Shown piece by piece: positions 20,263 to 53,216 of a stretch of 64,000 nt of DNA; the stretch's first letter is position 1, and the number at the start of each line of letters is the position of its first letter. Source of the DNA: an uncultured Actinomycetes bacterium. GTDB lineage: Bacteria > Actinomycetota > Thermoleophilia > UBA2241. The DNA lies in contig CAVRZA010000006.1 of the NCBI GenBank assembly GCA_963725665.1, forward strand, positions 288,001-352,000, given 5' to 3'. The notes beneath the pieces were generated by a model. That model was not told the DNA's origin. It ran no database searches and worked only from the letters and a program-made list of their open reading frames with translations. The position numbers were made by a program, and so were the translations under genes.

Positions 20263-21699
20263 ATGACGACTGATGCTGCTCCCCAACCCCGCACTCTCAC
20301 CCCGCGTGTCCGGACCAAGCTGCCCGGTCCCAGGAGCCGAGAGCTGCTGGCCGTGAAGGACAGGGTCTTCTGCGGCCCCTTGCGCGAGGGCGTCGACGTC
20401 CCTTTCGTCATGGCGCGCAAGTCTGACTGGATCATCGAGGACGTCGACGGCAACACGTACGCGGACCACGTCTCGGCTTGGGGCTCCACTCCGCTTGGGG
20501 CCAAGCCTGAGGTCGTCCTCACTGCCACGGCAGAAGCCATGCAGCGCTACGGTATGGAGATCACCGACTACGTGATGAGCGAGCCGCCGCTGGCGCTCGC
20601 CGAACGCCTGCTCGACATCGCGCCGCCCGGGATCGCGCGCGTCGGGCCGAGCATCAGCGGTACGGAGGCCGTCGAGGCCGGCGTGAAGCTCGCCCGCGAA
20701 GCGACAGGCCGCCCCATGATTCTCGGCTTCCACGGTCAGTATCACGGAGAGTCGACCTATCTGACGGCGGCCGCCAGCACCGACCTCTCCGAGGTGAGCA
20801 GCAACAACGCGCAATACGTATCGGGCTTCGTGTTCACTCCGTACCCCAACCGGTTCCGCGCTCCCTTCCATCGTGGGCCCGGACCCTATGACGACACGAT
20901 GTACGTGGATTTCATCGAGGAATGGCTCCTCGTCCACCAGGTTGACCCTGAGCAGATCGCCGGCGTCCTCATCGAGCCAGTGCTCGGCGAGGGAGGCATC
21001 CTCATCCCCTCTCAGGCATTCTGGGACCGGCTGACGGGCCTCTGTCGACGCTTCGGATGGAAGCTGGTCCTCGACGAGGTGCAGACCTGTCTGGGGCGCT
21101 GTGGGACCATGTTCGCCGCCGAGATCTGGGGCCTCGAGCCTGACGTCGTCCTCATGGGCAAGGCCATCGCCGGCGGAGGTCAGCCGATCGCCGCCGTGCT
21201 GGGCACCGAAGAGGTCATGAGCGAGACCGACGTGCAGCCGGGTGGCACCTTCGCGTGGACGCCGGCAGCCTGCGCCGGGGCCTTGGCGAGCATCGACGCG
21301 ATCGTTCGCGATCAGGCCTTGGAGAACGCCCAACGGCTCGAGCAGATCGCTCGCGAGACGCTCGAGCCGCTCGTCGAGCGGTTCGAGCAGGTGGGCGACG
21401 TGCGCGCCATCGGCGCGTGGGTCGGCGTGGAGTTCGTGACAGACAAGGAGAGCATCAGGCCCGCGCCGGCCTTCCACAGCGCCGTGCACCAGGCCCTGGT
21501 GCGACGCGGCGTCCTCGGCATCACCCAGTGGGGCAAATGGGTCTACCGGATGCAGCCGGCGATCAACATGCCGGCGGAGCTCTTCCGCTGGTCGTGTCTG
21601 CAGGTGGCCGATGCCGTCGACGAAGTGTCGAAGGCCCCCCCGCGGGAACCGGGACTGCTCGACCGCTACGTCGGCGGCGAGCGGCGGCGCACCGGCTAG
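20263..21699 (+). CDS. Class III PLP aminotransferase (GabT/PatA-like)
   Basis: LPGPRS, SGTEAVE, YHG, EPVLGEGG, DEVQT.LGR.G, MGKAIAGG, GGTF. Confidence 0.92.
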   Translation: MTTDAAPQPRTLTPRVRTKLPGPRSRELLAVKDRVFCGPLREGVDVPFVMARKSDWIIEDVDGNTYADHVSAWGSTPLGAKPEVVLTATAEAMQRYGMEITDYVMSEPPLALAERLLDIAPPGIARVGPSISGTEAVEAGVKLAREATGRPMILGFHGQYHGESTYLTAAASTDLSEVSSNNAQYVSGFVFTPYPNRFRAPFHRGPGPYDDTMYVDFIEEWLLVHQVDPEQIAGVLIEPVLGEGGILIPSQAFWDRLTGLCRRFGWKLVLDEVQTCLGRCGTMFAAEIWGLEPDVVLMGKAIAGGGQPIAAVLGTEEVMSETDVQPGGTFAWTPAACAGALASIDAIVRDQALENAQRLEQIARETLEPLVERFEQVGDVRAIGAWVGVEFVTDKESIRPAPAFHSAVHQALVRRGVLGITQWGKWVYRMQPAINMPAELFRWSCLQVADAVDEVSKAPPREPGLLDRYVGGERRRTG

Positions 21700-21791
21700 G
21701 CCACCCCGCGATGCGCCTCGCCGGACGCCTCGCGGGCGGCTCACGGCGAAGGCCAGACCCCGCCCATGATAGCCCGGGATCAAAATGGACC

Positions 21792-21830
21792 GAGCCGCGG
21801 CGGGGCGCCTGCGGCGCCCCGCCGCGGCTC
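21792..21830. terminator. Inverted repeat between convergent genes
   Basis: gagccgcggcggggcgcc-tgc-ggcgccccgccgcggctc. Confidence 0.65.
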
Positions 21831-21859
21831 TCGTCACTCACCGTAAGCGGTGCTGCCTG

Positions 21860-23935
21860 CTAGTGCATCGCCCCGATCTGCTCCGGCAGGAGTTCGAGGA
21901 CCGCGGCCATCGCGTTGAGCCGCACGTCGAGCTCGCTCGCCTGCCGATCGCGCTCTTCTTGCAGGTCGTCGATCGCCTGGCTCAGATCGCCGGCCTCGAT
22001 CGCCCGGTACTCGGGCAGCACGTCGATCGGCTGCGGCAGGTGTCCCTGCCCGGCCCAGTTGATCGCCCAGTAGTCGGGGTCGTGGCGGTTCAGCTCGTGG
22101 TAGTACACCACGGGGCTGAAGGTGAGCCCGTACCAGGTGAAGCCGATGCCGGCCAGCGTCTCGAGCGCCGCTGCGGTGTCGGGCGACGGCGCCTGCAACG
22201 CCGCCAGCGCGCTGTTCACGGCCTGCAGGTCCCAGAGTACCTGCTGGTGCGGATAGACAGTGTTGTCGCCCCAGTCGAGGGCGGTGAAGTTGCGGTTGAT
22301 CGCCTTGGCCACCTTCATCAGCAGGCGGCTCGCGTCGGCTCGCGCCCCAGGTGAGATGCTCGCCGCCCGGGCGTCGTACGCGGCCGCTGCATCCTTGAAC
22401 GCCTGCACGGCGCCGGCCAGGCGTGTCGCGGCGGCCGACGATGCGCCCGCCGCTTCCAGCTCGGCGGGGTTGACGGTGCTCTCGATCTGCACGGCGCGCG
22501 CCGTCAAGTTGTACGGCAGCAGCCGCCTGTCGAGCGCGACGCCCACCTTCTGCAGCATCTTCACGCAGGAGGCGAAGTACCGCCAATCGACCTTGGTGAC
22601 ACTGTCGTTGGGCGTGTGGTAGTTCCACGGGTACCACGAGTCGGCAGACGCCCAGAGCGACACAGCGGGGATACCGGCGGCGTTGAAGGGCCAATGGTCG
22701 CTGCCGCAGTCGACGTTGTCGAAGACGTCGGTGGGCCCGTCCGGGCCGACCAAGCTGGGGTTGTTCTCGATGATCTTCTGCATGAGCGGCAGGACTTCGG
22801 AGCTGACGCCGAAGTACATCTGCCCGTCGGGGCTGCCGGCGCCTTCCACGTTGAGCACGCCGGCGACCTTGCCCGGCCAGCTCGCATGGACTTTCGTCGC
22901 CGAGTACCAGGCCCCGTAGCACCAGTCGTACCAGGTGTCTACCTGGCCTCCCTCCTCGCCCGTGGTCGAGAGGAAGACGATCGTGCGCCGCGGCACGTAG
23001 CCCGCCATCTTCATCGCCCTGGCGATGACGAGCTGCGCGACGTCGGCTGTCGTGTTGTCGACGGCGCCCTGGAAGAAGGCGTCGTGGTGAGCGACGAAGA
23101 GGATCTTCTCGCCGTTCTTCACACGGCCGGGGATGACACCAATGACGTTGTAGCCGGTGCCGCCCTCGGTCCCCAACGTGAGCGTGGCGTTCAGCTTCAC
23201 GGTGGCAGTCGTCGGCCCCGCGGCGATCTTCGCCTTCAGCCAGTCGCCCTTAGCGCGCCCGATGTAGACGAGCGGCGCCCAAGAGGGATCGTGCTCGCCG
23301 TCATTGCTGCCAAGGGTGTTCGGGTCCTCGAAGAACGCCGTGTTGTCGATTGACGTCGTGAAGATCAGCGCCTTGGCGCCGCGGATCGTCGCCTCGTGCG
23401 AGGGACAGTTGCTCCAGCAGTCCTGGCTGCCGGGTGAGTGGTCGTCGGTGAAATCCATGAGCACGATCTTGCCCGAGACGTCGCCCAGGGCGTCGAACTC
23501 CGCCGCCGTGCCGCGCCCCGCGTAGACGACCTCGCCGGTGATGCCGCCCTTCGGCGTACCGGCGATGCAGGTGAACGAGGAGGCCTGCATGAGGCGGGTG
23601 CCGACCTTGACGCTGGCGCCCCGAAACTCCCAGGCATCCATGGTGATGGGCTCCAGGTGCACGTTCCTGAGCCCGGCGAGCTGCATCTGTGAGGCCAGAT
23701 AGAGCGAGCACTGGAAATCGGCCCTGCTGCCGCCGGTACGAAAGCCGAGCGGGCTGTCGCCCAGACTGCAGATATAGCGCTCTACCCGCTGTGGGAAGCC
23801 TCGCTGCAACAGGATGTCGACCGCACGGTCGAGGCTCGGCCTCGACGATGCCAGGGTCGGCGGCGGCGCTGCGAGGAGTGTCGTGAAGATCAGTAGGAAC
23901 ACCGTGATCGGCAGGGTTGTGCGGGATCGGCCCAT
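21860..23935 (-). CDS. Secreted M28-family peptidase with PA domain
   Basis: Signal peptide, VAHHD, GAVDN, GEE, LNVE, SDHWPF, YHTPND. Confidence 0.87.
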   Translation of the reverse strand: MGRSRTTLPITVFLLIFTTLLAAPPPTLASSRPSLDRAVDILLQRGFPQRVERYICSLGDSPLGFRTGGSRADFQCSLYLASQMQLAGLRNVHLEPITMDAWEFRGASVKVGTRLMQASSFTCIAGTPKGGITGEVVYAGRGTAAEFDALGDVSGKIVLMDFTDDHSPGSQDCWSNCPSHEATIRGAKALIFTTSIDNTAFFEDPNTLGSNDGEHDPSWAPLVYIGRAKGDWLKAKIAAGPTTATVKLNATLTLGTEGGTGYNVIGVIPGRVKNGEKILFVAHHDAFFQGAVDNTTADVAQLVIARAMKMAGYVPRRTIVFLSTTGEEGGQVDTWYDWCYGAWYSATKVHASWPGKVAGVLNVEGAGSPDGQMYFGVSSEVLPLMQKIIENNPSLVGPDGPTDVFDNVDCGSDHWPFNAAGIPAVSLWASADSWYPWNYHTPNDSVTKVDWRYFASCVKMLQKVGVALDRRLLPYNLTARAVQIESTVNPAELEAAGASSAAATRLAGAVQAFKDAAAAYDARAASISPGARADASRLLMKVAKAINRNFTALDWGDNTVYPHQQVLWDLQAVNSALAALQAPSPDTAAALETLAGIGFTWYGLTFSPVVYYHELNRHDPDYWAINWAGQGHLPQPIDVLPEYRAIEAGDLSQAIDDLQEERDRQASELDVRLNAMAAVLELLPEQIGAMH

Positions 23936-24044: not shown

Positions 24045-24057
24045 ATAGACTGTCGAC
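24045..24057. promoter_or_regulatory. Putative GntR operator
   Basis: ATAGACTGTCGAC. Confidence 0.55.
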
Positions 24058-24131: not shown

Positions 24132-25175
24132 CTAGGCCATAGGCCGCGTCATGACGGCGGCGAGCGCGGCAGCCGCTTCCTCGACGGCGTCATCATCGAT
24201 GTGCAGATGGGTGACGAACCTAATGCCGTACGGGTTCGGGTCGCCGAGCACGCCGCGTTCGGCAAGTCGCTCGGTGATCTCTTCGGCGGAACGGCCAGAC
24301 GGTGTGGTGTCGGCCAACACCATGTTCGTCTGCACCCGCTCCGGCTCCACCGCCAGGCCATCGATGCGAGCCAGCAGCGTAGCGAGACGGCGCGCGCGCC
24401 GGTGGTCGTCGGCAAGCCGGTCGATGTTGTGTTCGAGAGCGAAAAGCCCGGCTGCGGCAACGATGCCCGCCTGGCGCATCGCCCCGCCGAACTGCGCTCG
24501 ATACCGCAGCGCGCGCCGCAGGACTGTCGAGTCGCCGACGAGTAGCGAACCGACCGGCGCCCCCAGCCCTTTCGAGAGGCAGAAGCTCACCGTGTCGCAG
24601 AGAGCGGCGATCTCCGCTACCGGCGTCCCGGTGGCGACCGACGCGTTGAAGATGCGCGCGCCGTCGAGGTGGAGCCTCATCCCGTGACTGTCGCAGAAGG
24701 CGCGCACTTGGCGCATCCTTTCCAGCGGGTAGACCAACCCCCCGCACGCGTTGTGGGTGTTCTCCAGCACCACGGCGCGCGTAACGGCGTCGGTCTCGTC
24801 CTCGTCGGTCTGCACCCAGGGCTCCATCTCCACCGGATCGAGCGTGCCGTCAGGCGAGTCGAAGCAGTGAGCCTGGAGGCCGCAGAGGGCGGCCGAGGCT
24901 CCCATGGAGTACAGCTCTATGTACGAGCGGGCGTGCAGGAAGATGACCTCGCTGGGGTTCGTCAGAGCGCGAAGGCCCACGTGGTTTGCCATCGTGCCGG
25001 TAGGAAAGAAGACGGCGGCCTCCTTGCCGAACAGGTCCGCGGAGTACTCCTGCAGCCGGTTGACGGTCGGGTCCTCACCCGACTCGTCGTCGCCGACCTC
25101 AGCTTCGAACATGGCCCTCCGCATCTCTTGGCTGGGCAGGGTCTTGGTGTCGCTTCGCAGATCGATGGGGCGCAT
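24132..25175 (-). CDS. ltaE: Low-specificity L-threonine aldolase
   Basis: DLRSDT, GTMAN, ENTHN, HLDGARIFNA, CLSKGLGAPVG, GGAMRQAG. Confidence 0.93.
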   Translation of the reverse strand: MRPIDLRSDTKTLPSQEMRRAMFEAEVGDDESGEDPTVNRLQEYSADLFGKEAAVFFPTGTMANHVGLRALTNPSEVIFLHARSYIELYSMGASAALCGLQAHCFDSPDGTLDPVEMEPWVQTDEDETDAVTRAVVLENTHNACGGLVYPLERMRQVRAFCDSHGMRLHLDGARIFNASVATGTPVAEIAALCDTVSFCLSKGLGAPVGSLLVGDSTVLRRALRYRAQFGGAMRQAGIVAAAGLFALEHNIDRLADDHRRARRLATLLARIDGLAVEPERVQTNMVLADTTPSGRSAEEITERLAERGVLGDPNPYGIRFVTHLHIDDDAVEEAAAALAAVMTRPMA

Positions 25176-25293: not shown

Positions 25294-26055
25294 ATGGCAA
25301 GGTTCACGGACAAGGTGGCGCTGATCACGGGCGGCACGCGGGGCATTGGGTATGCGACCGCCGCACTCTTCGCCCGAGAGGGCGCGGGAGTAGTCATCTG
25401 CGGCCGTGATGAAAGGCGCCTGACAACGGCCACGGCGGAGCTCGAGACACAGGGCGGGCCTGTAGCCGGCGTCCGTTGCGACGTCGGTTCCGAGCAGGAC
25501 GTCGAGCGACTCTTCTCGGAAGTCCTGGACCTCTTTGGAGGCCTCGACGTTTGCGTCTGCAACGCCGGAATCGAGACGGACGAAGAGTTCACGATCTTCG
25601 ACCTGCCGCCGGCGGTCTTCGACGAGAACATGCGGACCAACGTGCGCGGCGTCTACCTGACATCCCAGGGCGCGGCGAGGACGATGAAGGGCACCGGAGG
25701 CGCCATCGTCATCGTCGGTTCGTCGAGCGGCATCATCGCCGATGTCACCGCCCCCTCTCCCACGTACGATGCGACCAAGGCCGCCGTGCACATGTTCGCG
25801 AAGGCCCTCGCCCTCGAGCTGGCGCCGTACGGCATCAGGGTGAACGCGGTCGCCCCAGGCTGGATCGAGACCGACATGACGGCCGTCGAGGCGGACGACC
25901 CCGAAGTGGTCGCAAGCTGGCTCGAGCGCATCCCGCTCCGCCGTCTAGGGCAGCCCGATGAGGTCGCCGAGGTCATCGCCTTCCTGGCGAGCGAGCGGGC
26001 TTCGTACATGACGGGCTCGGTTGTCACCGTCGACGGCGGCGAGACCGTCATCTGA
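25294..26055 (+). CDS. Short-chain dehydrogenase/reductase
   Basis: TGGTRGIG, CNAG, YDATK, NAVAPG, VDGG. Confidence 0.92.
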   Translation: MARFTDKVALITGGTRGIGYATAALFAREGAGVVICGRDERRLTTATAELETQGGPVAGVRCDVGSEQDVERLFSEVLDLFGGLDVCVCNAGIETDEEFTIFDLPPAVFDENMRTNVRGVYLTSQGAARTMKGTGGAIVIVGSSSGIIADVTAPSPTYDATKAAVHMFAKALALELAPYGIRVNAVAPGWIETDMTAVEADDPEVVASWLERIPLRRLGQPDEVAEVIAFLASERASYMTGSVVTVDGGETVI

Positions 26056-26145: not shown

Positions 26146-27279
26146 CTAGCCCTTCTTGAACGCCTGCCAGACACGCAGCCACTCGTCGTAGTTGTCGGGG
26201 ATCACGAGCGGGATCGCCTGCTGCAACTGCTCGGGCTTGTCGAGGCCGATGCTCTTGACGAGCTTCGGCGAGAGCAAGGCGGGTGCGTCGGTGTTGAACA
26301 CCCAGTACGTGTAGTTCTTCGCGTACCAAGCTTCCGGCGGCGCCGAGTTGTAGTAGTTGATCAGACCGTACGCGTTGTCGAGGTTGGCGCTCTCGGAGCT
26401 GACACCGAAACCGCAGATCCAGGCGAGGGCTCCCTCCTCCGGAATGACGTACTTGGCCGGCAGACCCTCGCGGGCGAGGGTGACACCGTAGTCGTGCCAG
26501 GCGAACCCCGCCACGATCTCGCCCGTCTTGTAAAGGTTGACGAAGTTGGCGTCGCCGCTGAAGAAGGTGCGGAGCTGGCTCTTGTGGGCGATGAGGTAGT
26601 CCTGCACCTTCTGCAGGTCGGCGTCGGTCAGGTGGAACGGGTCCTTGTATCCGAGGGCGAGAGCGGCGATGGGGATGCCCGTCGCCGGCGTGTCCTCGAT
26701 CGTTATCTTGCCTTTGAGCGCGGGGTCCTCGAACAGAGCCTTCCACGAGGTCACGCCGCCCGGGATCACCTCAGGGTTGTAGAGCACACCCCCCGTCCCG
26801 CCCGTCGTCGGCACCATGTAGACCTTGCCGTCGATGACCACCCCGCCGAGCTCGCGAACACTCGGTATCACCTTGCCCCATTCGGCGATGCGGCTCGTGT
26901 CGATGGGTTGCAGCAGGCCAAGCCTCACCATGCGCGGCGTCTCCTCGACGCAGACGTGCAGCACGTCGGCCTTGAAGCCGGCGCGCAGCTTGGCAACAGC
27001 CTCGTCGTTGGTGCTGAAGGCGGCCTTGCGCACCGTCAGGTCGGGGTTGGCCTTCTGGAAGGGCCCGAGGATCTGGGGGATGAGCGCGTCTTCGTAGGCG
27101 AACACACCGACGGTACCTCCGAGGGGACCCGTCGGAGCGGCAGAGGGTGAGGTCGATGGCGAAGGCGTCGAGGTCGTGCCGCCGCAGCTCGTCAGAGCGA
27201 GGGCGGCGAGGAGACCCACACAGAAGGCAAGAGGAAGTGGCAACACACGCGCTGGCGTGACTCGCTTCGAGACGTCCAT
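26146..27279 (-). CDS. PotD-like ABC substrate-binding lipoprotein
   Basis: Lipobox LTSC, SWKALF.DP..KG, PEEG..AW, AY..INY. Confidence 0.87.
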   Translation of the reverse strand: MDVSKRVTPARVLPLPLAFCVGLLAALALTSCGGTTSTPSPSTSPSAAPTGPLGGTVGVFAYEDALIPQILGPFQKANPDLTVRKAAFSTNDEAVAKLRAGFKADVLHVCVEETPRMVRLGLLQPIDTSRIAEWGKVIPSVRELGGVVIDGKVYMVPTTGGTGGVLYNPEVIPGGVTSWKALFEDPALKGKITIEDTPATGIPIAALALGYKDPFHLTDADLQKVQDYLIAHKSQLRTFFSGDANFVNLYKTGEIVAGFAWHDYGVTLAREGLPAKYVIPEEGALAWICGFGVSSESANLDNAYGLINYYNSAPPEAWYAKNYTYWVFNTDAPALLSPKLVKSIGLDKPEQLQQAIPLVIPDNYDEWLRVWQAFKKG

Positions 27280-27327: not shown

Positions 27328-28134
27328 TCAACCGCCTCCTCCCCGTCGCCGTGACAGGTAATCGTCGACCATGCGCACGAGCCGGGCGCGGCCGAAGCTC
27401 GCGTAGTGCCCCGGGTGCACCGCCCGCACTGGCAGGTCGCGAAGGCGCTCCATGGTCGTCACGTAGGCCTCCGCGTCCGACCCGGGGAGATCGTCGAGGA
27501 GCGGACCCTGGTAGACGGCATCCCCCGAGAACAGTCTGCCCGTCTGCTCCTCCCAGAGGCCGATGCTCCCCGGCGAGTGACCGGGGAAGTGAAGGACGAC
27601 GAACCAGCGGTCACCGAGGTCGATCGCGTCTCCTTCGTCCAGGAGTCGCGTCGGCGGAGCCGGCGTGATCTTGTACGACGCCGGCTCGAACGACACCGTG
27701 GGGAGAGCGCTCAAGAGTACCTCCGGAAGCCTGTAGCCGGCCTCCTCCATGCCGCGCAGGAACTCCTCGCCGAAGGCCGACCTGACCAGCGCAGCGTCGT
27801 CACTCGCCAGCGCGAGCTCGGATGCTTCCGCCCGGTGGACCAGCCGGTCCTCGAACTCGTGCGCGCCGCCCATGTGGTCGGAGTGGGTGTGGGTGGCGAC
27901 AGCGATCACCGGTCTGCCGCGCCCGCCGGCGAGGTCTTCGATCGTGGGCCGCAGCGGCGCGATGCCGTTGCCGGTATCGACCAGGAGATCGGCGTCACGC
28001 CCGCGCACGTGCCAGATGTTGGCGCGCAGGAACTCGTCGACGTGCGGTTCGGTGATGAGCGTGACGCCGTCGCCGACCGCTACCGCGGAGAACCAGGTGC
28101 CGGCGACAGGAAGCCGATGCGGCGGCCGGCTCAC
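27328..28134 (-). CDS. Metallo-beta-lactamase-fold hydrolase
   Basis: VDTG, THTHSDHMG, PGHSPG, SGD, PGH. Confidence 0.9.
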   Translation of the reverse strand: MSRPPHRLPVAGTWFSAVAVGDGVTLITEPHVDEFLRANIWHVRGRDADLLVDTGNGIAPLRPTIEDLAGGRGRPVIAVATHTHSDHMGGAHEFEDRLVHRAEASELALASDDAALVRSAFGEEFLRGMEEAGYRLPEVLLSALPTVSFEPASYKITPAPPTRLLDEGDAIDLGDRWFVVLHFPGHSPGSIGLWEEQTGRLFSGDAVYQGPLLDDLPGSDAEAYVTTMERLRDLPVRAVHPGHYASFGRARLVRMVDDYLSRRRGGGG

Positions 28135-28176: not shown

Positions 28177-28977
28177 CTACGGCTCCGGAACCGGCGGGTT
28201 GTCGGCCGGGTCGAACCACTCGCCGGTGAGCTCGCCGCCGTCGACAAGGATCGTCTCGCCGTTGATGTAGGACGCCTCATCCGAGGCCAGGAAGAGCACC
28301 ACGCTCGCCTGTTCCTCGGGGCGGGCGGGCCGACGAAGGGGCACCCGGCTGCAGTACTCGACGAATTCGCGGTGGTACTCCTCGCTCGTGAGCTCCTCCT
28401 CCGCCTCGGGCGTCCAGGTCTGTCCCGGCGCGACGCAGTTCGCGCGCACGCCTAGATGGCCTAGCTCGTGGGCGAAGCAGCGAGTCATCATCACGAGGGC
28501 CGCCTTGGACGAGTTGTAGTTGGCGGCCGGAGACTCGACGCGGAACGCGTTGGCGGAGGCGATGTTGATGATGATGCCGCCGCCGCTCTCGGCCATGTGA
28601 CGCGCCGCTACCTGGCTCGCGTAGAAGGGCCCGTCGAGGTTCACCGCGTAGGTGTCGCGCCAAGTCTGCTCGGTGATCTCCAACACCGGCCCGTAGGGCA
28701 TGATGGCGGCGTTGTTGACGAGAGCGTGCACGCGGCCCATGGCGGCGACCGCGTCGCGGACCATCTGCCGGGCCTGCTCGGGGACGCCGACATCGACGAC
28801 CGCCACCCGGACTCTCTCCGGGGCGGAGGACGAGGTGCGCATACGGTCTAGTCGCTCGCCCCGGCGAGCGACTGCATACACCTGCGCGCCCTCGTCGACG
28901 AAGGCGTGAGCGATGGCCCAGCCGATGCCGCTCGAAGCCCCGGTAACGATGACGTTCTTGTCTTCGAATCGCCGCAT
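28177..28977 (-). CDS. Short-chain dehydrogenase/reductase
   Basis: TGASSGIG, NNA, YNSSK, VAPG, VDGG. Confidence 0.92.
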   Translation of the reverse strand: MRRFEDKNVIVTGASSGIGWAIAHAFVDEGAQVYAVARRGERLDRMRTSSSAPERVRVAVVDVGVPEQARQMVRDAVAAMGRVHALVNNAAIMPYGPVLEITEQTWRDTYAVNLDGPFYASQVAARHMAESGGGIIINIASANAFRVESPAANYNSSKAALVMMTRCFAHELGHLGVRANCVAPGQTWTPEAEEELTSEEYHREFVEYCSRVPLRRPARPEEQASVVLFLASDEASYINGETILVDGGELTGEWFDPADNPPVPEP

Positions 28978-29053
28978 GCTCAGCCTCCTTACCGTCGCCA
29001 GCGACCAGTCTCGTCGCGCTACGTCGTCCGACTCGTGCGTCGCCGCCGCGTTC

Positions 29054-29897
29054 TCAGCCCACCTCAGGATAGTGAAGCGGCAGACCTGCGACGCCGACGT
29101 CGCCGACGAGCAGGTGCACTTCGCCGACGTTGGCAACCACCATGCAGCCGCAGGTCGGGCCCGGCGAACGCCATATTCGTGGGGGCGTTCAGAGCGATGC
29201 CCTGGGGATCGTCGGCGAGGATCTCAGCCCGTCCGTCCGGCGACACGCGATAGATGCGGTCGGGTCGGTAGCAGGCGACGTAGAGGTTGCCCTCGTCGTC
29301 GAGCGCAAGACCGTCGGGGACGGTGCCCGGCAGCTCCACGACGAGCTCTGGCCGGCCGGCCGAGCCGTCCGGAAGGATAGGGATGCGCGACACGCCCGGC
29401 AGGTACGACTCAGCCACGAGGAGCGCCCGGCCATCGGCGCTCAGGCAGCAGCCGTTGGGGTAGCGCGGCAGGTCGCGCGACCACACCACCGTCTCGCCGC
29501 CGGGAGCGACGCGCAGAATGCAGCCGTTGTCTTCCTGCGTCTCGCCGGAATCGGTCACGTACAGGTTGCCGCCGGCATCGAAGGCCGCGTAGTTGGGCTC
29601 GATCATCGCCTGTCCCGGCGCGCCCGCGGAGTACGCCTCCACCGTTCCCGTCCGAGGGTCGACGCGCACGACCTCGCAACGCCCGCAGTCGCAGGCGTAC
29701 ACGCGCCCCAAGCCGTCGAGCGTCACACCCAGGAGCTCGCCGCCGGTGTCGCCCACCTGCTCGACCTCTCCATCGAGTGCGACAGCGTAGATCTGGCCCG
29801 CCTCACCGCCCGCGTAGAGGCACCCGGCGACCGGGCTCCAGGCAACACCCTCGGGGTGGTCGAGGTCCTCGGCGAGGAGGGTGAACGGCTGCGGCAT
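29054..29897 (-). CDS. SMP-30/gluconolactonase family protein (frameshift near 29145)
   Basis: PEG, PN..F, PNG, PDGL.LD..GNLY, PTN.AFAG; C-terminus VVANVG...LHYPEVG continues in another frame. Confidence 0.83.
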
Positions 29898-29938
29898 AGC
29901 GCTCGCCTGCCTTTCTCGGTCGGGTTTGCGCGAGGCCG

Positions 29939-41501: not shown

Positions 41502-41560
41502 ACTTGGTTACGTAGCATGGCGGGAGATGCGCCATGGGCATCGGGTGAAAAGGGGGGATC

Positions 41561-43627: not shown

Positions 43628-44520
43628 TGGCCGACGTCGTCGTCGAGCAACGTGGCCGCCCCTTGAGGCGACAGGCGGCACGCAGACTGCGCCCGTTTGC
43701 GTTCCTCTTCGGTCCCATCGGCATACTGCTCGCATTCTTCGTGGCGCCGCTGGTCATCATGATCGTCATCAGCTTCCGCTACGCGTCTCTGTTCGGTTTC
43801 GAGAGCGGCTGGACGATGAGCAACTACGTCAACGTGCTCACCGACCCCATCTACTGGGACGTCGCCAAGGACACGGTCGAGATGGCCACCATCGCCATGG
43901 CCGTGCAGCTCCTTGTCGGGTTTCCGCTCGCGTACTGGATCGCCTTCAAGGCAGGACGCTTCGAGCTCATTTACCTGCTCCTCCTCGTGCTCGCCGACGA
44001 GCTCAACCCAATCATCCGGATCTACGCCTGGCGCATGATCCTCGGACGCGAGGGCATGATCAACCACGTGCTGCAGAGCATCGGCGCGATAGACCATCCC
44101 CTCGACTGGCTGCTCTTCACCAAGTTCTCGGTGATCACTGTGCTCACGACGAGCTGGGTCACCTACACCGTGCTGCCCATCTACGCGGCGATGAAGGCCA
44201 TCGACCCGAGCCTCTTCGAAGCGGCCATTGACTTGGGCGCAAGGTGGACGACACGCTGGCGACGCATACTGATCCCCCTCGCCGCGCCGGGCATCTTCGT
44301 CGCCATCATCCTCGTATACATCCCGCTGTTCACCGACTTCGCCACCCCGGCCCTGGTCGGAGGGGCGTCCTCCTACATGCTAGGCAACTCGGTGGCCGAT
44401 CTGATGATCGCCACCGGAGACTGGGGGATGGGCGCCGCCCTGAGTCTGCTGCTGCTCGCCGCAGTGGCCGGAGTCGCAGTGGTGGCCTACTTCCTCTCCA
44501 AGCTGAACCAACTCGATTGA
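43627..44520 (+). CDS. ABC permease, PotB-like
   Basis: R.YAW, G.IN, EAAIDLGA, P.L.GG. Confidence 0.9.
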   Translation: MADVVVEQRGRPLRRQAARRLRPFAFLFGPIGILLAFFVAPLVIMIVISFRYASLFGFESGWTMSNYVNVLTDPIYWDVAKDTVEMATIAMAVQLLVGFPLAYWIAFKAGRFELIYLLLLVLADELNPIIRIYAWRMILGREGMINHVLQSIGAIDHPLDWLLFTKFSVITVLTTSWVTYTVLPIYAAMKAIDPSLFEAAIDLGARWTTRWRRILIPLAAPGIFVAIILVYIPLFTDFATPALVGGASSYMLGNSVADLMIATGDWGMGAALSLLLLAAVAGVAVVAYFLSKLNQLD

Positions 44521-44589
44521 GGTCCGAGAGACGGAACGAAGGGACCAGTTCATGAGACGAGGCTTGGTCGACAGGCAAGGGAGTGCGTG

Positions 44590-45750
<1,161 letters not shown>

Positions 45751-45874: not shown

Positions 45875-47152
45875 ATGGTGACCGCAGCAGACAGCGCTCG
45901 GCTGTTCTGGGTGCGGCCGGGCATGGAGATCGACCACGGTCGGCTCACCCTGGCCGGCCGCGACGCCGAGCAGCTCGCGAGGGAGCACGGCACACCACTC
46001 TACGCATACGACCTGACCCGCATCGAGGAGCAGGTGCGCGCCTTGCAGGGAGCCCTGGACGATGCTGGACTGCGCTACCGGACGAGGCTGGCGATGAAGG
46101 CACAGCGAGAGCCGGAGGTCCTGGCGTACGTGCGACGCCTCGGCGGGTCGGGCAGCCCCGAGAGCGTGGGGCTCGACGTCTGCTCGCCCGGCGAGGCCCT
46201 GCACGCGCTCTCCCATGGATGGTTGCCCGAGGAGATCAGCTACACGGGCACCAATGTGTCGGAGCGCGACTTAGATGTGATTCTCGCGCACCCTATCCAC
46301 CTGAATGTCGACCTCATCAGTCAGCTCGCCCGAGTCGGCCGTCGCGCGCCCGGCCGGGCCATCGGGATACGCGTCAACCCTAGAGGGGGCGCCGCCTGGG
46401 GAGGCGAGGAGAGCTCACTCTACAGCGGAACGAGACCGACGAAATTCGGTCTCTACGGGGAGCAACTCGACGAGGCACTCGCCCTGGCTCGCCGATACCA
46501 TCTCACCATAGACACCGTCCATTTTCACGTGGGCGACGGCTTCCTCGACGACGGCCTACCGGCTTTTGCCGAGGCCGTCGGCCGCGCCACGTTGATGGTG
46601 CGAGACCTCCTCGACGCCGGCTGCCCCATCACGGAGGTCAACACGGGCGGAGGCCTCGGTGTGCCACAGCTTCCTGGGGAGAGGCCGCTCGACCTCGACG
46701 CCTACGCCGGTATCCTGGCCGCTCACCTGGGTCCGTTGGACGTCGTCGTCGGGGTCGAGCCGGGTGATTTCCTCTGCAAGGAGAGCGCCATCCTCCTGGC
46801 CGAGGTCGTCACCGTTGAGGATCGCCTCGGGGTGCCCTTTGTCGGGCTCGATGTGGGCTGGAACGTTATGAACGACCGCTTCATCTATGACGTGCCCTTT
46901 GAGGTCGCCCTTTGCCGAGCCGCGGACACGCCCAGGACCCAGACGGTAGTGGTCTCCGGGCACATCAATGAGGGCGATGACCTGTTCGCCGAGGACTACC
47001 CCTTCCCTGAGGTCGATGAGGGCGACATCGTCGCCATCATCAACGTCGGCGGCTACAACCAGGCGATGACGATGGCCCACTGCATGAGACCGGCCGCAAA
47101 TGCGGTCTACTTCGAGGACAGGGTCGCGCCGGCTGTGGAGGACGGCGAGTGA
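45875..47152 (+). CDS. Fold-type III PLP decarboxylase (LysA-like)
   Basis: GTPLY, AMKA, S.GE, KFG, HFHVG, GGG, EPG, G.Y. Confidence 0.85.
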   Translation: MVTAADSARLFWVRPGMEIDHGRLTLAGRDAEQLAREHGTPLYAYDLTRIEEQVRALQGALDDAGLRYRTRLAMKAQREPEVLAYVRRLGGSGSPESVGLDVCSPGEALHALSHGWLPEEISYTGTNVSERDLDVILAHPIHLNVDLISQLARVGRRAPGRAIGIRVNPRGGAAWGGEESSLYSGTRPTKFGLYGEQLDEALALARRYHLTIDTVHFHVGDGFLDDGLPAFAEAVGRATLMVRDLLDAGCPITEVNTGGGLGVPQLPGERPLDLDAYAGILAAHLGPLDVVVGVEPGDFLCKESAILLAEVVTVEDRLGVPFVGLDVGWNVMNDRFIYDVPFEVALCRAADTPRTQTVVVSGHINEGDDLFAEDYPFPEVDEGDIVAIINVGGYNQAMTMAHCMRPAANAVYFEDRVAPAVEDGE

Positions 47153-47225
47153 GCCACAGACAACCGCGGGGTGCGACCCTCAGATGCATGACCTCACCGG
47201 AGGCGATCGAGGCGGGGGGAGGTCA

Positions 47226-48883
<1,658 letters not shown>

Positions 48884-48953: not shown

Positions 48954-49059
48954 GATAGCATGGAGCGTGTGACTTGGCAGTCGGGTATTACGGACGAGAC
49001 CGCCAACATGGCCGGTGAGCAGCGCGAGCACGGACACAAGAGCGCGAGATAGGAGAGCG

Positions 49060-50220
49060 ATGGCGATGGAGAAGCGAAGTAGATTTCTCTACCTATCTGA
49101 GCCGGACATGATCGAGGCCGGAGTGCTCAATGCAGCGCAGTGCATCGACGTCTGTGAGGATGTCTTTAGGCTCCTCGCCACCGGCGACTACCTGATGGGT
49201 GGCCCTAACCACAATAGCCACGGCCTGGGCATCGACTTCCCCAAGGAGTCGCCGTTCCCCAGCATGCCCTTGGCGGGACCCGACCGCCGCTTCGTTGCGA
49301 TGCCGGCGTACCTGGGCGGGAAGTACGACGTCTGCGGCAACAAGTGGTATGGCTCCAACCCCGCCAACACTTCGCGAGGTCTGCCGCGCTCGGTTCTGAC
49401 CGTGATGCTAAACGACAAGGACACCGGCGAGCCCCTGTGTCTCATGTCAGCGAACCTCCTGAGTTCTGCTCGAACAGGCGCCATCCCCGCTGTAGCCTCC
49501 CGCTTTCTCGCGCGCCAGGACTCCGAGATCTGCGCTGTGATCGGATGCGGCCCGATCAACAAGGCATGCTTCCGGGCCGTTCTCTCGCAGATGCCAAGCC
49601 TCAAGAAAGCTATCTGCCACGACCTCACCGAGGCGACTGCCCAGGCCTTCGCGGATTGGTCAAGGACGAAGTTCGGGATAGACAGTGTCGTTTCTACCTC
49701 CCTTGAGGATGCCCTCGGGGACGCCGATGTCGTGACCGTCGCGGCATCGCGGCTGAAGACGCTCTACGTGCAGGACGCATGGTTCAAGAGTGGGGCAACC
49801 GTGCTACTCACTGGCCCGATGAAGGCGGAGGACTCCTTCTGGATCAACAGCACCATCGTCTACGACAACATCCACCTACAGAAGGCCTACGTTCTGGAAG
49901 CACTTGCCGCCCCCGACAAACTCAAGTACTACGACGGCGTCATTGGCGGACCGCTCTACAAGTTGATCGACGACGGGAAGATGCCGTCTCTGGCTGACTC
50001 CACTGACCTGGGAAATGTCATCCTTGGCAATAAGAGTCGTCGTCAGAGCGACGAGGAACGTATCGTCTTTGTTGCCTGTGGAATGGCCGTCTTCGACATT
50101 GCCTGGGGATTTGAACTCTACCAGTCTGCCCTCAAGCAAGGACTCGGCCAGTGGCTTGTGCTTTGGGATGAGCCCTACCGCGAAGAAGCATCTGCGTCGG
50201 CCATCCCGGCTGGACTCTGA
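49060..50220 (+). CDS. Ornithine cyclodeaminase/mu-crystallin family protein
   Basis: AMPAYLGG, KWYGSN, LS.ARTGA, IGCG.I, GM...DIAW. Confidence 0.87.
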   Translation: MAMEKRSRFLYLSEPDMIEAGVLNAAQCIDVCEDVFRLLATGDYLMGGPNHNSHGLGIDFPKESPFPSMPLAGPDRRFVAMPAYLGGKYDVCGNKWYGSNPANTSRGLPRSVLTVMLNDKDTGEPLCLMSANLLSSARTGAIPAVASRFLARQDSEICAVIGCGPINKACFRAVLSQMPSLKKAICHDLTEATAQAFADWSRTKFGIDSVVSTSLEDALGDADVVTVAASRLKTLYVQDAWFKSGATVLLTGPMKAEDSFWINSTIVYDNIHLQKAYVLEALAAPDKLKYYDGVIGGPLYKLIDDGKMPSLADSTDLGNVILGNKSRRQSDEERIVFVACGMAVFDIAWGFELYQSALKQGLGQWLVLWDEPYREEASASAIPAGL

Positions 50221-50492
50221 CGGGTCGGGGACTAGAAGGTTCTATTCTCCCAGCATCGACGTAGGCGTCCGTCTAGTGGTTCGAGGTGGGGGACAGTCTT
50301 CATAGCTGCGGCTGGAGAGACAGGCGTCATGGCCGTCCGTTCGAGGTCGTCTCTTCCACCCTTGGGGACCAGAGCGGTCGGGTGCATCATCGGCTCGAGC
50401 AAGGCGCAGCGCCCCGCGAAACGGCCGCATGTGGATGCCGATGCCAACGCGGCGAAGGAGCTTGTCGGCCGGAAATGGGAGTGTGGTAGGGG

Positions 50493-51896
50493 ATGCTGAA
50501 GATACGCAACTTCGAAGCACTGATCTCGCACGGAGAGACACATTCCAGGAGGGTGGTGCTGGAGATTGCCGACAAGACGCTGCGACGGCTGGACGCATAC
50601 AGCAGGATAGGGAGCATCGCGCACCTAGACGGGTCTTCCCTGCACATCGGGACACGGACTTGGGACCTCTCGAAAAAGAGGCATGTGTACCTCGTCGGCG
50701 CCGGAAAGGCATGCAACGCGATGGCTGCCGCGCTCGACGAGATCCTCGGCGACAATCTCAGCAAGGGGATCGTGATCGTCAAGGTCGCGGAGGAGGCAGA
50801 CGTCTTCAGGCACACAGACGTCTACGTGGGTGGGCACCCACTGCCCAACCGGACGGGCTACGAGGCCTCTCTGAAGATCCTGGAACTCGCGGACCAAGCG
50901 GGGCCCGAGGACCTATTCATTGCAGTGATCAGCGGGGGGAGCTCAGCTCTGATGAGCTGTCCGGTCCAGGGAATCTCAACACAGGACGAGATAGACGCAA
51001 CAGATGTTCTGCTGAAGTCCGGGGCCGGCATCTATGAGATCAACGCGATTCGACGCCACATATCGCAGACGAACGGCGGCATGCTGGCTAAGAGAATCCA
51101 AGCTTCCGGTGCTGAGCTGATCGGCTTTGGTATCTCCGACGCTGTCGGGAACCCGCCGACGGGCGACATCGGAATCCCGTGCCGGAACTACGCAAGCACG
51201 CCGATCGGTCCCGATAGGACTACCATTGCTGAGGCCCGGCGCGTCATCGCCGACTATGACTTGGCTGATCGGCTGCCCCCCAACGTAGTCCGGTACCTCA
51301 TGGAGGCAGGTGAGGCTTGCGAGACGCCCAAGGCATTCCCGGACAACACCTATTATCTGCTTAACACCGTGCCCGATTCGTGCATCTACGCAAGAGAGGT
51401 GGCGGAGGAGATGGGGATCCCTGCCTACATCCTGACTTCCTTCCTCGAGGGTGAAGGCAAGGATGCCGGCACCCTCTTCGCCTCGCTTGCCCGTGAGGTA
51501 CAGGCCTACGGAAACCCCTTCCCCGCACCGTGCGTTATCCTCAGCAGCGGGGAGACGACGACGAGGATCCTGGAGAACTCCGCTGTTGAAGGGCACGGGG
51601 GACCATCGCAAGAGCTCACCGCGAGCTTCGCGATCAGCGCCACGAAGGCTCCCGGGGTGTGCATGTTGTCGGTGGACTCGGAGGGAACTGACGGGACCAC
51701 AACCGTGGCCGGCGGGCTCACTGACTCAAGCAGCTACGAGGCGGCCATGAAGAATGGTGTAAGCCTGCATGCCGCGTTGCGGGGTCACTTCTGCTACGAA
51801 GCATTGGAGGCTATCGGCGACACCGTGATCACTGGCAACACGGGAACGAATCTCTGCGATTTCAACATTCTCTACGTCCCGACTCTTGAGAACTAG
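50493..51896 (+). CDS. Glycerate 2-kinase (MOFRL/TtuD type)
   Basis: GAGKA, GHPLP, ISGGSSAL, GETT, SEGTDG, TG.TGTN. Confidence 0.9.
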   Translation: MLKIRNFEALISHGETHSRRVVLEIADKTLRRLDAYSRIGSIAHLDGSSLHIGTRTWDLSKKRHVYLVGAGKACNAMAAALDEILGDNLSKGIVIVKVAEEADVFRHTDVYVGGHPLPNRTGYEASLKILELADQAGPEDLFIAVISGGSSALMSCPVQGISTQDEIDATDVLLKSGAGIYEINAIRRHISQTNGGMLAKRIQASGAELIGFGISDAVGNPPTGDIGIPCRNYASTPIGPDRTTIAEARRVIADYDLADRLPPNVVRYLMEAGEACETPKAFPDNTYYLLNTVPDSCIYAREVAEEMGIPAYILTSFLEGEGKDAGTLFASLAREVQAYGNPFPAPCVILSSGETTTRILENSAVEGHGGPSQELTASFAISATKAPGVCMLSVDSEGTDGTTTVAGGLTDSSSYEAAMKNGVSLHAALRGHFCYEALEAIGDTVITGNTGTNLCDFNILYVPTLEN

Positions 51897-51947
51897 CCAC
51901 AGGCAGGCTTCAAGGCCAGGCCGCTCCAGGGAGGAGCAGGGTCCCAC

Positions 51948-53216
51948 ATGAAGATCGAATCTCTGCGGGCACGGCAGCTTATCGACTGCATGTGCCGGCC
52001 AATGGTCGAGGTCGAGGTCGTGACGGAAGGAGGATTCGTCGGCAGAGGCGCAGCGCCTACCGGCCAGTCCGTGGGGATGCACGAGGCCTTCGTGCTGCGG
52101 GATAACGATCCTGACGTGTACAACGGGCTCAGCGTTCACCGGGCGGTAGAGAACGTCCGGCACGTAATCGCGCCGGCCCTGATCGGGATGCCGGTCGACG
52201 ACCAACGCGCCCTCGACGACCTGATGATCGCCCTCGATGGGACAGAGAACAAGAGCAACCTGGGCGGTAACGCCATCTACTCGACCTCGATCGCCTGCCT
52301 CAGGGCTGCTGCTGCCGCCGCCGGTCTGCCCCTCTATCAATATCTCGGGCGGGAGCGTCTCAAGACGGTTCCAGTACCAAGTTTCAACATGGTGAACGGG
52401 GGACGATACCGCGACTTCGTACAACCGTTCAATGAGTTCATCGTCATGCCCTACAAGGCAGAGTCCATCTTTGAAGCGGTGGAGATGGCGGTCGATCTCT
52501 TCGACGTGATGTCTGGCGTTCTAGAGGAGCACCTCGGATCGTCTCCGAAGGTGGCGCGCTCCTATGGCTACGTTGCGCCGTCTGAGGATCCTGAAGTCGT
52601 CCTTTCGTTGATGCAGGAGGCGATCGATCGCTGCGGGTACGCGGACAAGATGGCCTTCGCCCTCGACTGCGCCTCGAGTGAGATGTACGACAGCGCGACC
52701 GCGACCTACTACCTCAAGGGGGGGCGGGTTGGCACTGACGAGCTGATTTCCTACGTCAAGGACCTGACCGAGACGTTCAACTTGGTGTTCGTGGAGGACC
52801 TCCTGGACGAGAACGACTGGGACGGCTATCCACGTGCCGTGAGGCAGATTCCCCGCACCATCATTCTTGGAGACGACCTCATCGCTACGAACCTGGCGCG
52901 TCTTCGGAAGGCGACAGCCATGGGGGCGATCGAGGGATTTGTCTTCAAGCCCAATCAGATCGGGACGATCTCGGAGGCCTTGGAGACCTATGAATACGGG
53001 GTCGCACACAACCTCGTCGCAGTCCCCTCTGGGCGCTCGGGCGGTGTTGTCGATGACGTGGTCATGGACCTATCGGTCGGACTCCAGGTTGCATTTCAGA
53101 AGAACGGCGCGCCACGGTCGGGAGAGCGGATCGAGAAGCTCAACTTCCTCATGCGTGCTGCTGACTCAATTCCTGACTGCTCCCTGGCAGATGTAGTCAG
53201 CATCGTGAAGTTCTAG
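51948..53216 (+). CDS. Divergent enolase homolog
   Basis: LGGNA, PVP.FN..NGG, LDCASSE, VED, GDDL, KPNQIG, RSG; several canonical catalytic residues changed. Confidence 0.88.
   Translation: MKIESLRARQLIDCMCRPMVEVEVVTEGGFVGRGAAPTGQSVGMHEAFVLRDNDPDVYNGLSVHRAVENVRHVIAPALIGMPVDDQRALDDLMIALDGTENKSNLGGNAIYSTSIACLRAAAAAAGLPLYQYLGRERLKTVPVPSFNMVNGGRYRDFVQPFNEFIVMPYKAESIFEAVEMAVDLFDVMSGVLEEHLGSSPKVARSYGYVAPSEDPEVVLSLMQEAIDRCGYADKMAFALDCASSEMYDSATATYYLKGGRVGTDELISYVKDLTETFNLVFVEDLLDENDWDGYPRAVRQIPRTIILGDDLIATNLARLRKATAMGAIEGFVFKPNQIGTISEALETYEYGVAHNLVAVPSGRSGGVVDDVVMDLSVGLQVAFQKNGAPRSGERIEKLNFLMRAADSIPDCSLADVVSIVKF

Follow-up and report, generated by a model that had tools for sequence, protein, structure and literature searches.

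The subject of this study is a catabolic gene island of a soil actinobacterium, in the centre of which a selenoenzyme of the glycine reductase (Grd) type is encoded. The island covers bases 12431-53216 of a 64-kb stretch from the genome of an uncultured Actinomycetes bacterium (Thermoleophilia; UBA2241; GCA_963725665.1). This stretch is called the window in the following, and coordinates refer to it unless another contig or locus is named. The G+C content of the window is 61-71%; the genome has a size of 3.73 Mb, a completeness of 97.5% and a contamination of 5%. Genes were called by codon-position G+C bias and named with Pfam and NCBIfam. A full reductase operon is located on the minus strand, comprising a grdE-like gene (33360-34655; PF09338, 244 bits) for the alpha subunit of the substrate-specific 'protein B', a grdB-like selenoprotein gene (32073-33350), grdC for the beta subunit of protein C (30721-32245), trxA for a thioredoxin (30400-30720; PF00085, 72 bits) and grdA for selenoprotein A (29939-30395). 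The products of the first two genes are designated GrdE' and GrdB'. A preliminary description of this stretch had listed a series of gene families; each of them was found in its place with Pfam and NCBIfam, and grdA, trxA and grdC, not on that list, were found in the window as well.

Two of the genes contain an in-frame TGA codon for selenocysteine (Sec). In grdA it lies at 30268-30270 within ETECFV-U-TAAGAMD, where CFVU forms a C-x-x-U motif, and PF04723 was matched in two frames (98.9 and 82.3 bits). In grdB it lies at 32337-32339; with TGA read as Sec, the translation runs through LLTGTUGTGTRCG and on into 87 further conserved residues, and the codon is found at the same position in nearly all of 80 related loci (see below) with a readable frame. 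In one of these loci (L016, GrdB at approximately 11230-12540), cysteine (TGC/TGT) replaces Sec in the GTUGTGTRCG motif, a natural variant that could ease heterologous expression. The genome encodes the selenocysteine machinery (tRNA-Sec and SelB) and carries only one set of genes for GrdA, GrdB and GrdC. A 7-bp hairpin begins 12 nt past the grdB UGA; its fold was no better than those of shuffled sequences (z = -0.58 for grdB and +0.17 for grdA), and folding of a Sec insertion sequence (SECIS) is no support either way.

Three apparent frameshifts, each at a run of identical bases, interrupt the operon, two of them in grdA and one in grdC near 30930. A single frame of grdC reached 412.8 bits (cut-off 450), and the model NF040746 was matched by three pieces in two frames (330, 88.6 and 80.2 bits, covering positions 2-116, 155-406 and 396-474 of 477); with the indel removed, grdC would probably pass the cut-off. 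Contigs of four other public runs were compared over 29900-34700. At 30384, one base more is present in a near-identical contig of run X1, and at 30930 one base is missing from the contigs of both X1 and X3. These differences restore the frames, so that the genes are read as intact in the organism, and at least two of the three frameshifts are probably assembly errors.

Co-occurrence of the gene set in related loci

Several genes next to the reductase operon recur with it in other genomes. These encode a class-III aminotransferase (AT3; 20263-21699, plus strand; PF00202, 254 bits), which is 75-79% identical in the closest loci, and, on the minus strand, a short-chain dehydrogenase (SDR2; 28177-28980), which passed the cut-off of the glucose-1-dehydrogenase subfamily (NF005559; 225 versus 215), an SMP30/gluconolactonase-type beta-propeller protein (SGL; 29064-29897; PF08450), a putative lactonase, and an FAD oxidoreductase of the CrtI/amine-oxidase superfamily (FADox; 37507-39219). 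A GntR/FCD transcription regulator (39518-40192; PF00392 and PF07729) is encoded on the plus strand and is followed by genes for two solute-binding proteins (SBP3 and SBP4), two permeases and an ATPase (40300-45750), of which the stretch 41561-45750 corresponds to an ATP-binding cassette (ABC) importer of the PotABCD type. Another solute-binding protein similar to PotD/YdcS (SBP2) is encoded at 26146-27279 on the minus strand.

The 80 related loci were obtained in a scan with one genome per species, and all of them belong to actinobacterial metagenome-assembled genomes (MAGs; Thermoleophilia, Actinomycetes, Gaiellales and other Actinomycetota). Co-occurrence was counted by tblastn with the window proteins in 10 kb on each side of the locus. 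Besides GrdB (78/80) and GrdE (77/80), GrdA and GrdC (67/80 each) and the thioredoxin (65/80) were found in most loci. SDR2 and the aminotransferase were detected in 46 loci each, the lactonase in 45, SBP2 and SBP4 in 42 each, the regulator in 41 and FADox in 36; the permeases were found in 25 to 30 loci and the ATPase in 27. Lower counts were obtained for a metallo-beta-lactamase-fold hydrolase (MBL, 15/80), a diaminopimelate-decarboxylase-like protein (DAPdc, 10/80), a mandelate racemase/muconate-lactonizing enzyme (MR/MLE, 10/80, with 26-30% identity), a rhodanese and MauE (9/80 each) and an aldolase (8/80). Within the same distance, none of the 80 loci contained the two aldehyde:ferredoxin oxidoreductases (AOR1 and AOR2), the saccharopine-dehydrogenase-like protein (SacchDH), the CehA-like protein, the M28 peptidase, LarA, the OCD-family protein, the glycerate-kinase-like and enolase-like proteins or PylB, PylC and PylD.

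A frequent gene order is FADox, aminotransferase, lactonase, SDR, grdE, grdB, grdC, trx, grdA, GntR, SBP, two permeases and ATPase, tightly packed on one strand. Relatives of the alpha subunit are numerous in metagenomes. In a library clustered at 50% identity, 768 clusters were matched at E <= 1e-3 and 162 at E <= 1e-30, while only about 13 clusters were above 40% identity.

In a FastTree phylogeny of 74 GrdE sequences, three groups were distinguished. Clade A contains the window and nine loci, all nine of which harbor at least three of five accessory genes (FADox, AT3, SGL, SDR2 and GntR, usually with PotD-type ABC genes alongside). The same holds for 31 of the 39 loci of clade C, where several of the loci without accessory genes are short contigs, and for none of the 25 'bare' loci of clade B, which consist of grdE-B-C-trx-A only. 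An aldolase gene of the GntG type is located immediately upstream of grdE in seven of the nine clade A loci, plus two frameshifted loci. The preliminary description had proposed a Stickland-like pathway and had named a lack of co-occurrence elsewhere as the finding to speak against it; in fact, accessory genes accompany Grd in 40 of the 48 loci of clades A and C.

Clade-specific residues accompany this division. In GrdE, position 222 is Glu in 49/49 sequences of clades A and C and Leu in 24/25 of clade B, position 259 is Asp (49/49) versus His (23/25), and position 329 is Phe (49/49) versus Asp (24/25). Three residues before Sec, GrdB has Thr in 40/40 sequences of clades A and C and Ser in 19/19 of clade B. 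Seven clade B GrdE proteins contain a cysteine within T-C-G-E-Y-H-W; the corresponding motif is T-A-G-Q-Y-D-W in the window and T-N-G-A-Y-D-W in most of clade C. The missing cysteine and the acidic residues gained in GrdE, together with Thr for Ser beside Sec, argue that the true substrate of the clade A and C enzyme may differ from that of the bare clade B enzyme.

A candidate palindromic operator and a GntR/FCD regulator

The genes of the island share a palindrome, TNGACNGTCNA, of the form TNGAC-N-GTCNA. It was found in a mismatch-tolerant comparison of intergenic regions; a scan of the same regions for perfect palindromes gave nothing shared. Seven exact matches to TNGACNGTCNA are present in the window (1.10 expected; none of 100 shuffles reached seven). 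Six of these are located in promoter regions, and the remaining copy lies inside the CehA-like open reading frame (ORF). Two copies (20094-20104 and 20181-20191) are found upstream of the aminotransferase gene, one (24046-24056) between the aldolase and M28 genes, before M28, one (34750-34760) 95 nt upstream of grdE, and one (39503-39513) between the divergently transcribed GntR and FADox genes, 15 nt before the start of GntR. The last promoter copy (41490-41500) precedes SBP4 and the ABC operon by 71 nt. In the whole genome the palindrome occurs 66 times, corresponding to 0.018 per kb compared to 0.30 per kb in the window region, and the island is the only cluster of the genome in which it spans several promoters. 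Elsewhere in the genome the motif clusters just once, in a tandem array of 11 matches to TNGACNGTCNA with a spacing of approximately 150 nt (G000:C1:489241-490924).

Among 86 related loci, 122 matches were counted, only four of which are inside recognised genes. They are situated upstream of GntR (29), grdE (26), AT3 and FADox (11 each), SBP4 and DAPdc (10 each), MLE and SDR2 (5 each), the threonine-aldolase-type gene and LarA (4 each) and SacchDH (2), and 24 were not placed. The density of the motif is 0.211 per kb in clade A, 0.086 per kb in clade C and 0.014 per kb in clade B. The motif by which the preliminary description had linked the genes is probably TNGACNGTCNA, and the linkage is borne out by its position before the regulator's own gene and before the target promoters, which is kept in relatives. 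As judged from the arrangement of sites, most of the island appears to be one autoregulated regulon of the GntR/FCD regulator, which presumably binds TNGAC-N-GTCNA.

Departures of the reductase from known classes

Full-length GrdB' did not reach the cut-off of any model specific for one substrate. The scores were 412.1 bits for glycine GrdB (TIGR01917, cut-off 602.2), 447.4 for sarcosine GrdF (cut-off 800), 387.7 for betaine GrdH (cut-off 775) and 86 for PrdB (cut-off 300). The cut-off of the selenoprotein B subfamily comprising glycine, betaine, sarcosine and D-proline reductases (TIGR01918) was passed (432.6 versus 65.45). GrdE' scored 153.2 against GrdG (cut-off 780) and 103.9 against FarE (cut-off 675), and no GrdI model was matched in the window at E <= 1e-5. 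By NCBIfam cut-offs, the reductase fits no known substrate class. None of the solved structures matches GrdE' or GrdB' by sequence.

The alpha subunit contains cysteine residues only at positions 161, 214, 342 and 345 and none between 215 and 341; the candidate pyruvoyl columns 255, 258, 262 and 271 are occupied by Ala, Tyr, Gly and Phe. According to the passages of PMC9908766 on this point, the pyruvoyl group of GrdE from Clostridioides difficile derives from Cys242, and FarE and GrdI are described in a section of PMC10838667 as having no processing cysteines and not being proproteins. Of 150 listed representatives of the alpha subunit, 38 were scanned, none of which reached a cut-off of the NCBIfam alpha-subunit models, GrdG and FarE only (best score 631, cut-off 780); the pyruvoyl column can therefore not be fixed from labelled sequences. 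An unprocessed alpha subunit would be in keeping with a substrate from which the leaving group can depart without Schiff-base formation.

The second departure concerns the ATP-yielding end. In 16 reductase-bearing genome handles (the window's own genome, G001-G005, G037, G181, G182, G028, G040 and G206-G210), GrdD (NF040747) was over the cut-off in none and gave only matches of 24-34 bits, as in controls without Grd; two of the handles, G037 and G002, evidently represent one genome (identical coordinates). Acetate kinase (AckA, TIGR00016) and phosphotransacetylase (Pta, TIGR00651) gave no match at E <= 0.001 in the window's own genome (97.5% complete). With none of GrdD, AckA and Pta detected, it is doubtful that the reaction ends in ATP formation in the classical way. 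A possible alternative ending is that the thiolase-like GrdC passes the acyl group to a thiol. The earlier proposal of a Stickland-like unit is thus supported in part, namely in the conserved, motif-linked gene set around a Grd variant, and the conventional ending is among the parts in doubt.

Further genes of the island

Between the aminotransferase gene and SDR2, the minus strand encodes an M28 peptidase with a PA domain (21860-23935; identified with Pfam), which is motif-linked in the window only, a GntG-family pyridoxal phosphate (PLP) aldolase of the threonine-aldolase type (24132-25175; NF041359, 376 versus a cut-off of 230) and the MBL hydrolase (27328-28134; PF00753). A second short-chain dehydrogenase, SDR1 (25300-26055), is encoded on the plus strand and has 62-68% identity at the equivalent relative position in the closest loci. 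Upstream of grdE, the MR/MLE enzyme is encoded at 36246-37418 on the minus strand. The stretch 34754-35245 contains only part of a gene for a PotF-like binding protein and has 73% DNA identity to a segment of SBP4 (42360-42561). Downstream of the importer, the plus strand carries genes for a fold-type III PLP decarboxylase, the DAPdc-like protein (45875-47152; lysA model 201, cut-off 298 not reached), for a LarA-like protein of the nickel-pincer 2-hydroxyacid racemase family (47100-48563; under all cut-offs) and, within 49015-53216, for an OCD/mu-crystallin family protein, a glycerate-2-kinase-like protein and an enolase paralogue. A second enolase gene of the genome is located at C2:141236. 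A lone C-terminal MOFRL piece (53471-53821) follows the enolase paralogue; together with the binding-protein fragment it is a sign of earlier rearrangement of the island.

The outer module (12431..19767) comprises a PotD-like solute-binding protein (SBP1, minus strand), AsnC (plus), AOR1 (14453-16435, plus), all three assigned with Pfam and NCBIfam, a 4Fe-4S ferredoxin-like ORF (16465-16914, plus), SacchDH (ending at 18209, plus), a CehA-like protein (minus) and a conserved ORF without assigned family (minus). AOR2 is encoded at 60615-62408 on the minus strand. An inverted repeat of 0.57 kb (16340-16904 and 60147-60710; 98-99% identical, 44 kb apart) contains the last 125 nt of each AOR gene and the downstream ferredoxin-like ORF. 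Outside of this repeat, the AOR gene bodies are just 73-77% identical, which suggests a recent gene conversion or a swapped 3' cassette. The genome holds 11 AOR-family genes in total, and a paralogue of SacchDH (49%) is found just beyond the end of the window (G000:C6:352328). Upstream of the island (9144-10874), a gene for a protein with a B12-binding domain (minus) and a radical SAM gene (plus) overlap head-to-head. No Rfam family reached the gathering score within the window.

Outer genes in extended relatives

For three close relatives (G002, G003 and G004), the loci were extended by 20 kb on each side. In all three, a LarA homologue (50-59% identity) adjoins the DAPdc-like gene, with enolase-like and glycerate-kinase-like neighbours. 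The latter two are 81-83% identical to those of the window in G004, where the OCD gene (82%) is found alongside, and only 36-39% identical, as more distant paralogues, in G002 and G003. Genes for an AOR (70%), the conserved unassigned ORF and the CehA-like protein directly follow the ABC genes in all three relatives; AOR2 being 67% identical to AOR1, this AOR could match either copy. A SacchDH-like gene (86%) was found in G002 only, and OCD likewise in one of the three. The outer genes are thus linked to the cluster in the window's branch, albeit in a different order, and the recurrence of the genes in differing order speaks for selection acting on the gene set and not for synteny by descent. 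Of the wider gene list given earlier, LarA, the enolase-like and glycerate-kinase-like genes and an AOR1 homologue were recovered in three of three relatives and OCD and SacchDH in one each. AOR2 was not detected in the 80 loci with their 10-kb flanks. Neither M28 nor pyl genes were seen within 10 kb of the 80 loci or in the three extended relatives.

The pyrrolysine genes beyond the island

The genes pylB, pylC and pylD and a tRNA-Pyl are located 2.5 kb past the island, and all three proteins scored above their cut-offs (PylB 448.5 versus 348.2, PylC 338.4 versus 248.3, PylD 211 versus 150). The tRNA-Pyl (CUA; 55702-55774, minus strand) directly follows pylD. Its 3' half is repeated at 54455-54504 (86% over 50 nt), and the repeats flank a stretch of 1.2 kb without any ORF of at least 100 codons; the region 54455-55774 resembles the remnant of a small element that had inserted at the tRNA gene. 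In the genome, 31 MttB-family matches were obtained, six of which contain exactly one in-frame TAG and may be pyrrolysine enzymes; the gene content suggests that methylamine-type chemistry is used. The preliminary description had explained the co-location by methylamines released in the pathway and passed on to pyrrolysine-dependent methyltransferases. Of 201 genomes sampled from the class, eight gave a strong match to GrdB, and 34, mostly of the window's own family, had PylB over the cut-off. Of the eight GrdB genomes, four encode PylB, all from the window's family and in three cases (G037, G061 and G181) on another contig, and four are without PylB. The pyl genes track the bacterial family and not the reductase, contrary to the proposed link, and their location next to the island looks incidental.

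Proposed pathway

The explanation favoured here, in which we place somewhat more trust than doubt, is that the island is a GntR-controlled unit for the catabolism of a nitrogen compound taken up from outside, in which a distinct clade of Grd-type enzymes performs the reductive step. It starts from what was observed, namely the gene identities, the in-frame Sec codons, the conserved co-occurrence and operator and the non-detection of GrdD; the order of steps, electron flow, acyl product and substrate are deduced from these. The PotD-type ABC importer would take up the nitrogen compound, which, judging from the kind of transporter and the enzymes encoded, may be an amine or amino-acid derivative. 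PLP enzymes, namely the aminotransferases and the DAPdc-like enzyme, would trim the compound, and in the window's branch the GntG-type aldolase may cleave a beta-hydroxy-alpha-amino acid to glycine and an aldehyde. The CrtI/amine-oxidase flavoenzyme, the two SDRs and the lactonase would then yield a glycyl (X-CH2-COO-) unit and carbonyl fragments. GrdE' and the Sec-containing GrdB' are predicted to cleave the C-alpha-X bond of the glycyl unit reductively, with transfer of the carboxymethyl group to the selenocysteine of GrdA, after which thioredoxin would re-reduce GrdA and GrdC would work up the acyl group. The likelier product is an acetyl thioester or acetate, and not acetyl phosphate for ATP synthesis, given the non-detection of GrdD, acetate kinase and phosphotransacetylase.

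In the Thermoleophilia branch, the module of AOR, ferredoxin and SacchDH-like protein probably oxidises the aldehyde fragments and returns the electrons. Formation of glycine and an aldehyde by the aldolase, combined with oxidation by AOR and ferredoxin, could be an internal Stickland reaction, which is chemically tidy; this idea cannot hold for clade C, which is without the aldolase and, within 10 kb, without AOR. The preliminary description had AOR supply electrons to Grd and named a betaine or a glycated amine as possible substrates; both proposals are inferences. Our best guess for the substrate is an activated or N-substituted glycyl compound. The neighbours of FADox in the ESM Atlas are automatically named 'pyridine nucleotide-disulfide oxidoreductase domain-containing', the family name of PYROXD2, which is mentioned together with trimethylamine and dimethylamine in the abstract of PMC3169529. 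This name is a lead toward N-methylated amines and not evidence; the relatives of the flavoenzyme, the lactonase and SBP4 in the PDB are too distant for naming a substrate. A further-reaching interpretation, which we put forward tentatively and hold to be rather doubtful, is that clades A and C form a new Grd substrate class, with no pyruvoyl group in the alpha subunit, GrdC acting alone without the PlsX-like GrdD and the two-carbon unit leaving as thioester or acetyl-CoA. In widespread soil Actinomycetota, it would provide the reductive step for an N-alkylated or activated glycyl compound taken up via a polyamine-type transporter, that is, Stickland-type metabolism outside the classical anaerobes and without substrate-level phosphorylation.

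Several observations weigh against a single catabolic unit or against parts of the pathway. The gene order is shuffled among relatives, so some members may serve separate pathways, and the M28 gene bears the motif in the window, yet is conserved in none of the 80 loci. Each accessory enzyme is either under an equivalog cut-off or over a broad subfamily cut-off only. The linkage of AOR, LarA, OCD and the glycerate-kinase-like and enolase-like genes derives from three relatives, and none of them is found within 10 kb in clade C. The column of GrdE' taken to correspond to Cys242 of C. difficile was assigned by co-linearity with profile coordinates and not by alignment to a characterised GrdE. The non-detection of GrdD, AckA and Pta is based on MAGs and does not prove their absence. 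Support for the deep node of the GrdE tree is just 0.47, and no claim on the ancestral state is made for this reason. The grdA shift near 30165 lies outside the coverage of the compared contigs.

Alternative explanations

The island might comprise an ordinary glycine reductase in a mosaic neighbourhood, in which a plain actinobacterial Grd lies beside unrelated catabolic operons on an accessory island. The near-equal scores of GrdB' against the GrdB, GrdF and GrdH models would agree with this, as would the varying gene order, the 25 bare loci in related lineages and the threonine-aldolase-type gene, the product of which yields free glycine, directly upstream of grdE in the closest loci. Moreover, the Schiff-base carbonyl may sit in GrdB, as indicated in a part of PMC9908766, so that an unprocessed GrdE is compatible with glycine. 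What sets the window's enzyme apart is the association with accessory genes in clades A and C (40/48) compared to the bare clade (0/25), together with a motif density of 0.086-0.211 versus 0.014 per kb. In addition, the motif precedes both grdE and the accessory operons, the charge changes in GrdE are clade-specific, and the Thr/Ser split beside Sec in GrdB is perfect. We consider an ordinary glycine reductase unlikely on these grounds. The missing processing cysteine, shared with GrdI and FarE as characterised in the section of PMC10838667 on these proteins, would agree with another substrate, betaine or an N-methylglycine, the methylamines of which would be passed to MttB-family (partly pyrrolysine) methyltransferases, as the preliminary description had suggested. 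Such enzymes are encoded in the genome (31 matches, six with one in-frame TAG), pylBCD and tRNA-Pyl lie 2.5 kb beyond the island, and the PYROXD2 name of the flavoenzyme neighbours, as far as the mention of trimethylamine and dimethylamine in PMC3169529 goes, points in the same direction. The GrdH score (388 versus a cut-off of 775) and an importer of the PotD type and not the betaine type speak against a betaine-type reductase, and the aminotransferases, lactonase, SDR and aldolase would have no role in betaine reduction. As PylB is also distributed by family (34 of 201 class genomes, but 4 of 8 reductase genomes, and in three of these four on another contig), we regard this explanation as quite improbable.

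Finally, the island could be a relic in which the frameshifts in grdA and grdC mark a decaying set of pseudogenes. Apart from the three apparent frameshifts, the binding-protein fragment at 34754-35245 and the MOFRL fragment at 53471-53821 could be taken as traces of decay. Contigs of other runs restore the frames at 30384 and 30930, however, every shift sits at a base run and is flanked by conserved residues on both sides, and the codon-position GC bias is intact, which leaves decay a very slim chance. The GntR-controlled catabolic unit around a distinct Grd clade is therefore retained as the preferred explanation. The best word share among public runs was 0.23, so that no claim on the habitat is made from it.

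Comparison with known systems

A literature search by title and abstract for glycine reductase in Thermoleophilia or Actinobacteriota gave no publication on this cluster, and these lineages are not treated in the passages of PMC9751293, a paper with a Grd phylogeny. With this study, a large uncharacterised clade is defined, comprising at least 48 accessory-linked loci, each from the representative genome of a different species, for which partner genes can be listed together with an operator and a candidate regulator. To our knowledge, the substrates of the superfamily are confined to glycine, sarcosine, betaine, D-proline and, recently, fluoroacetate, and we know of Grd biochemistry almost wholly from clostridia and their allies. 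The substrate of the enzyme and the acyl release by protein C without GrdD become testable questions, as does the nature of the selenium- and thioredoxin-driven reductions carried out by uncultured Thermoleophilia and Actinomycetes in wet or anoxic soil.

The importer has the four-component layout of PotABCD from E. coli (PotA 414 versus a cut-off of 482, PotC 153/326, PotB 149/348 and PotD 74/582), and PotD and PotF are the best solved relatives of SBP4. It differs in that all island components are under the equivalog cut-offs and several paralogous binding proteins are encoded. D-proline reductase (PrdA/PrdB) belongs to the same superfamily and likewise catalyses a selenocysteine-dependent reductive C-N cleavage. 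The Prd system is not known to use GrdA or protein C, whereas GrdA and GrdC are both conserved in the island loci, and GrdB' is far from PrdB (86/300).

With betaine reductase (GrdH/GrdI) and the fluoroacetate system (FarB/FarE), the island has in common an alpha subunit without cysteines for pyruvoyl formation. The scores for GrdH (388/775) and FarE (104/675) separate it from both, and uptake genes and accessory enzymes are different. The betaine and fluoroacetate reductase systems share the GrdC/GrdD of their host, according to the relevant section of PMC10838667. The canonical glycine reductase complex of Clostridium sticklandii, Eubacterium acidaminophilum and C. difficile is made up of GrdA, GrdB/GrdE, GrdC/GrdD and TrxA/TrxB, as outlined in passages of PMC9908766. 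The island resembles it in a selenoprotein A with CFVU, a selenoprotein B with an in-frame UGA, a partner of the GrdE family, GrdC and an adjacent thioredoxin, and presumably also in the attack of the selenolate on the alpha-carbon with formation of a carboxymethyl-selenoether on GrdA. In contrast to the canonical complex, GrdD (16 handles), AckA and Pta were not detected, a cysteine is missing at the position of Cys242, and GrdB' does not reach the glycine cut-off (412/602). Furthermore, the island genes are part of a putative GntR regulon that also encodes an importer of the PotD type and enzymes of the amine and sugar type, and the host is a soil actinobacterium and not a clostridium.

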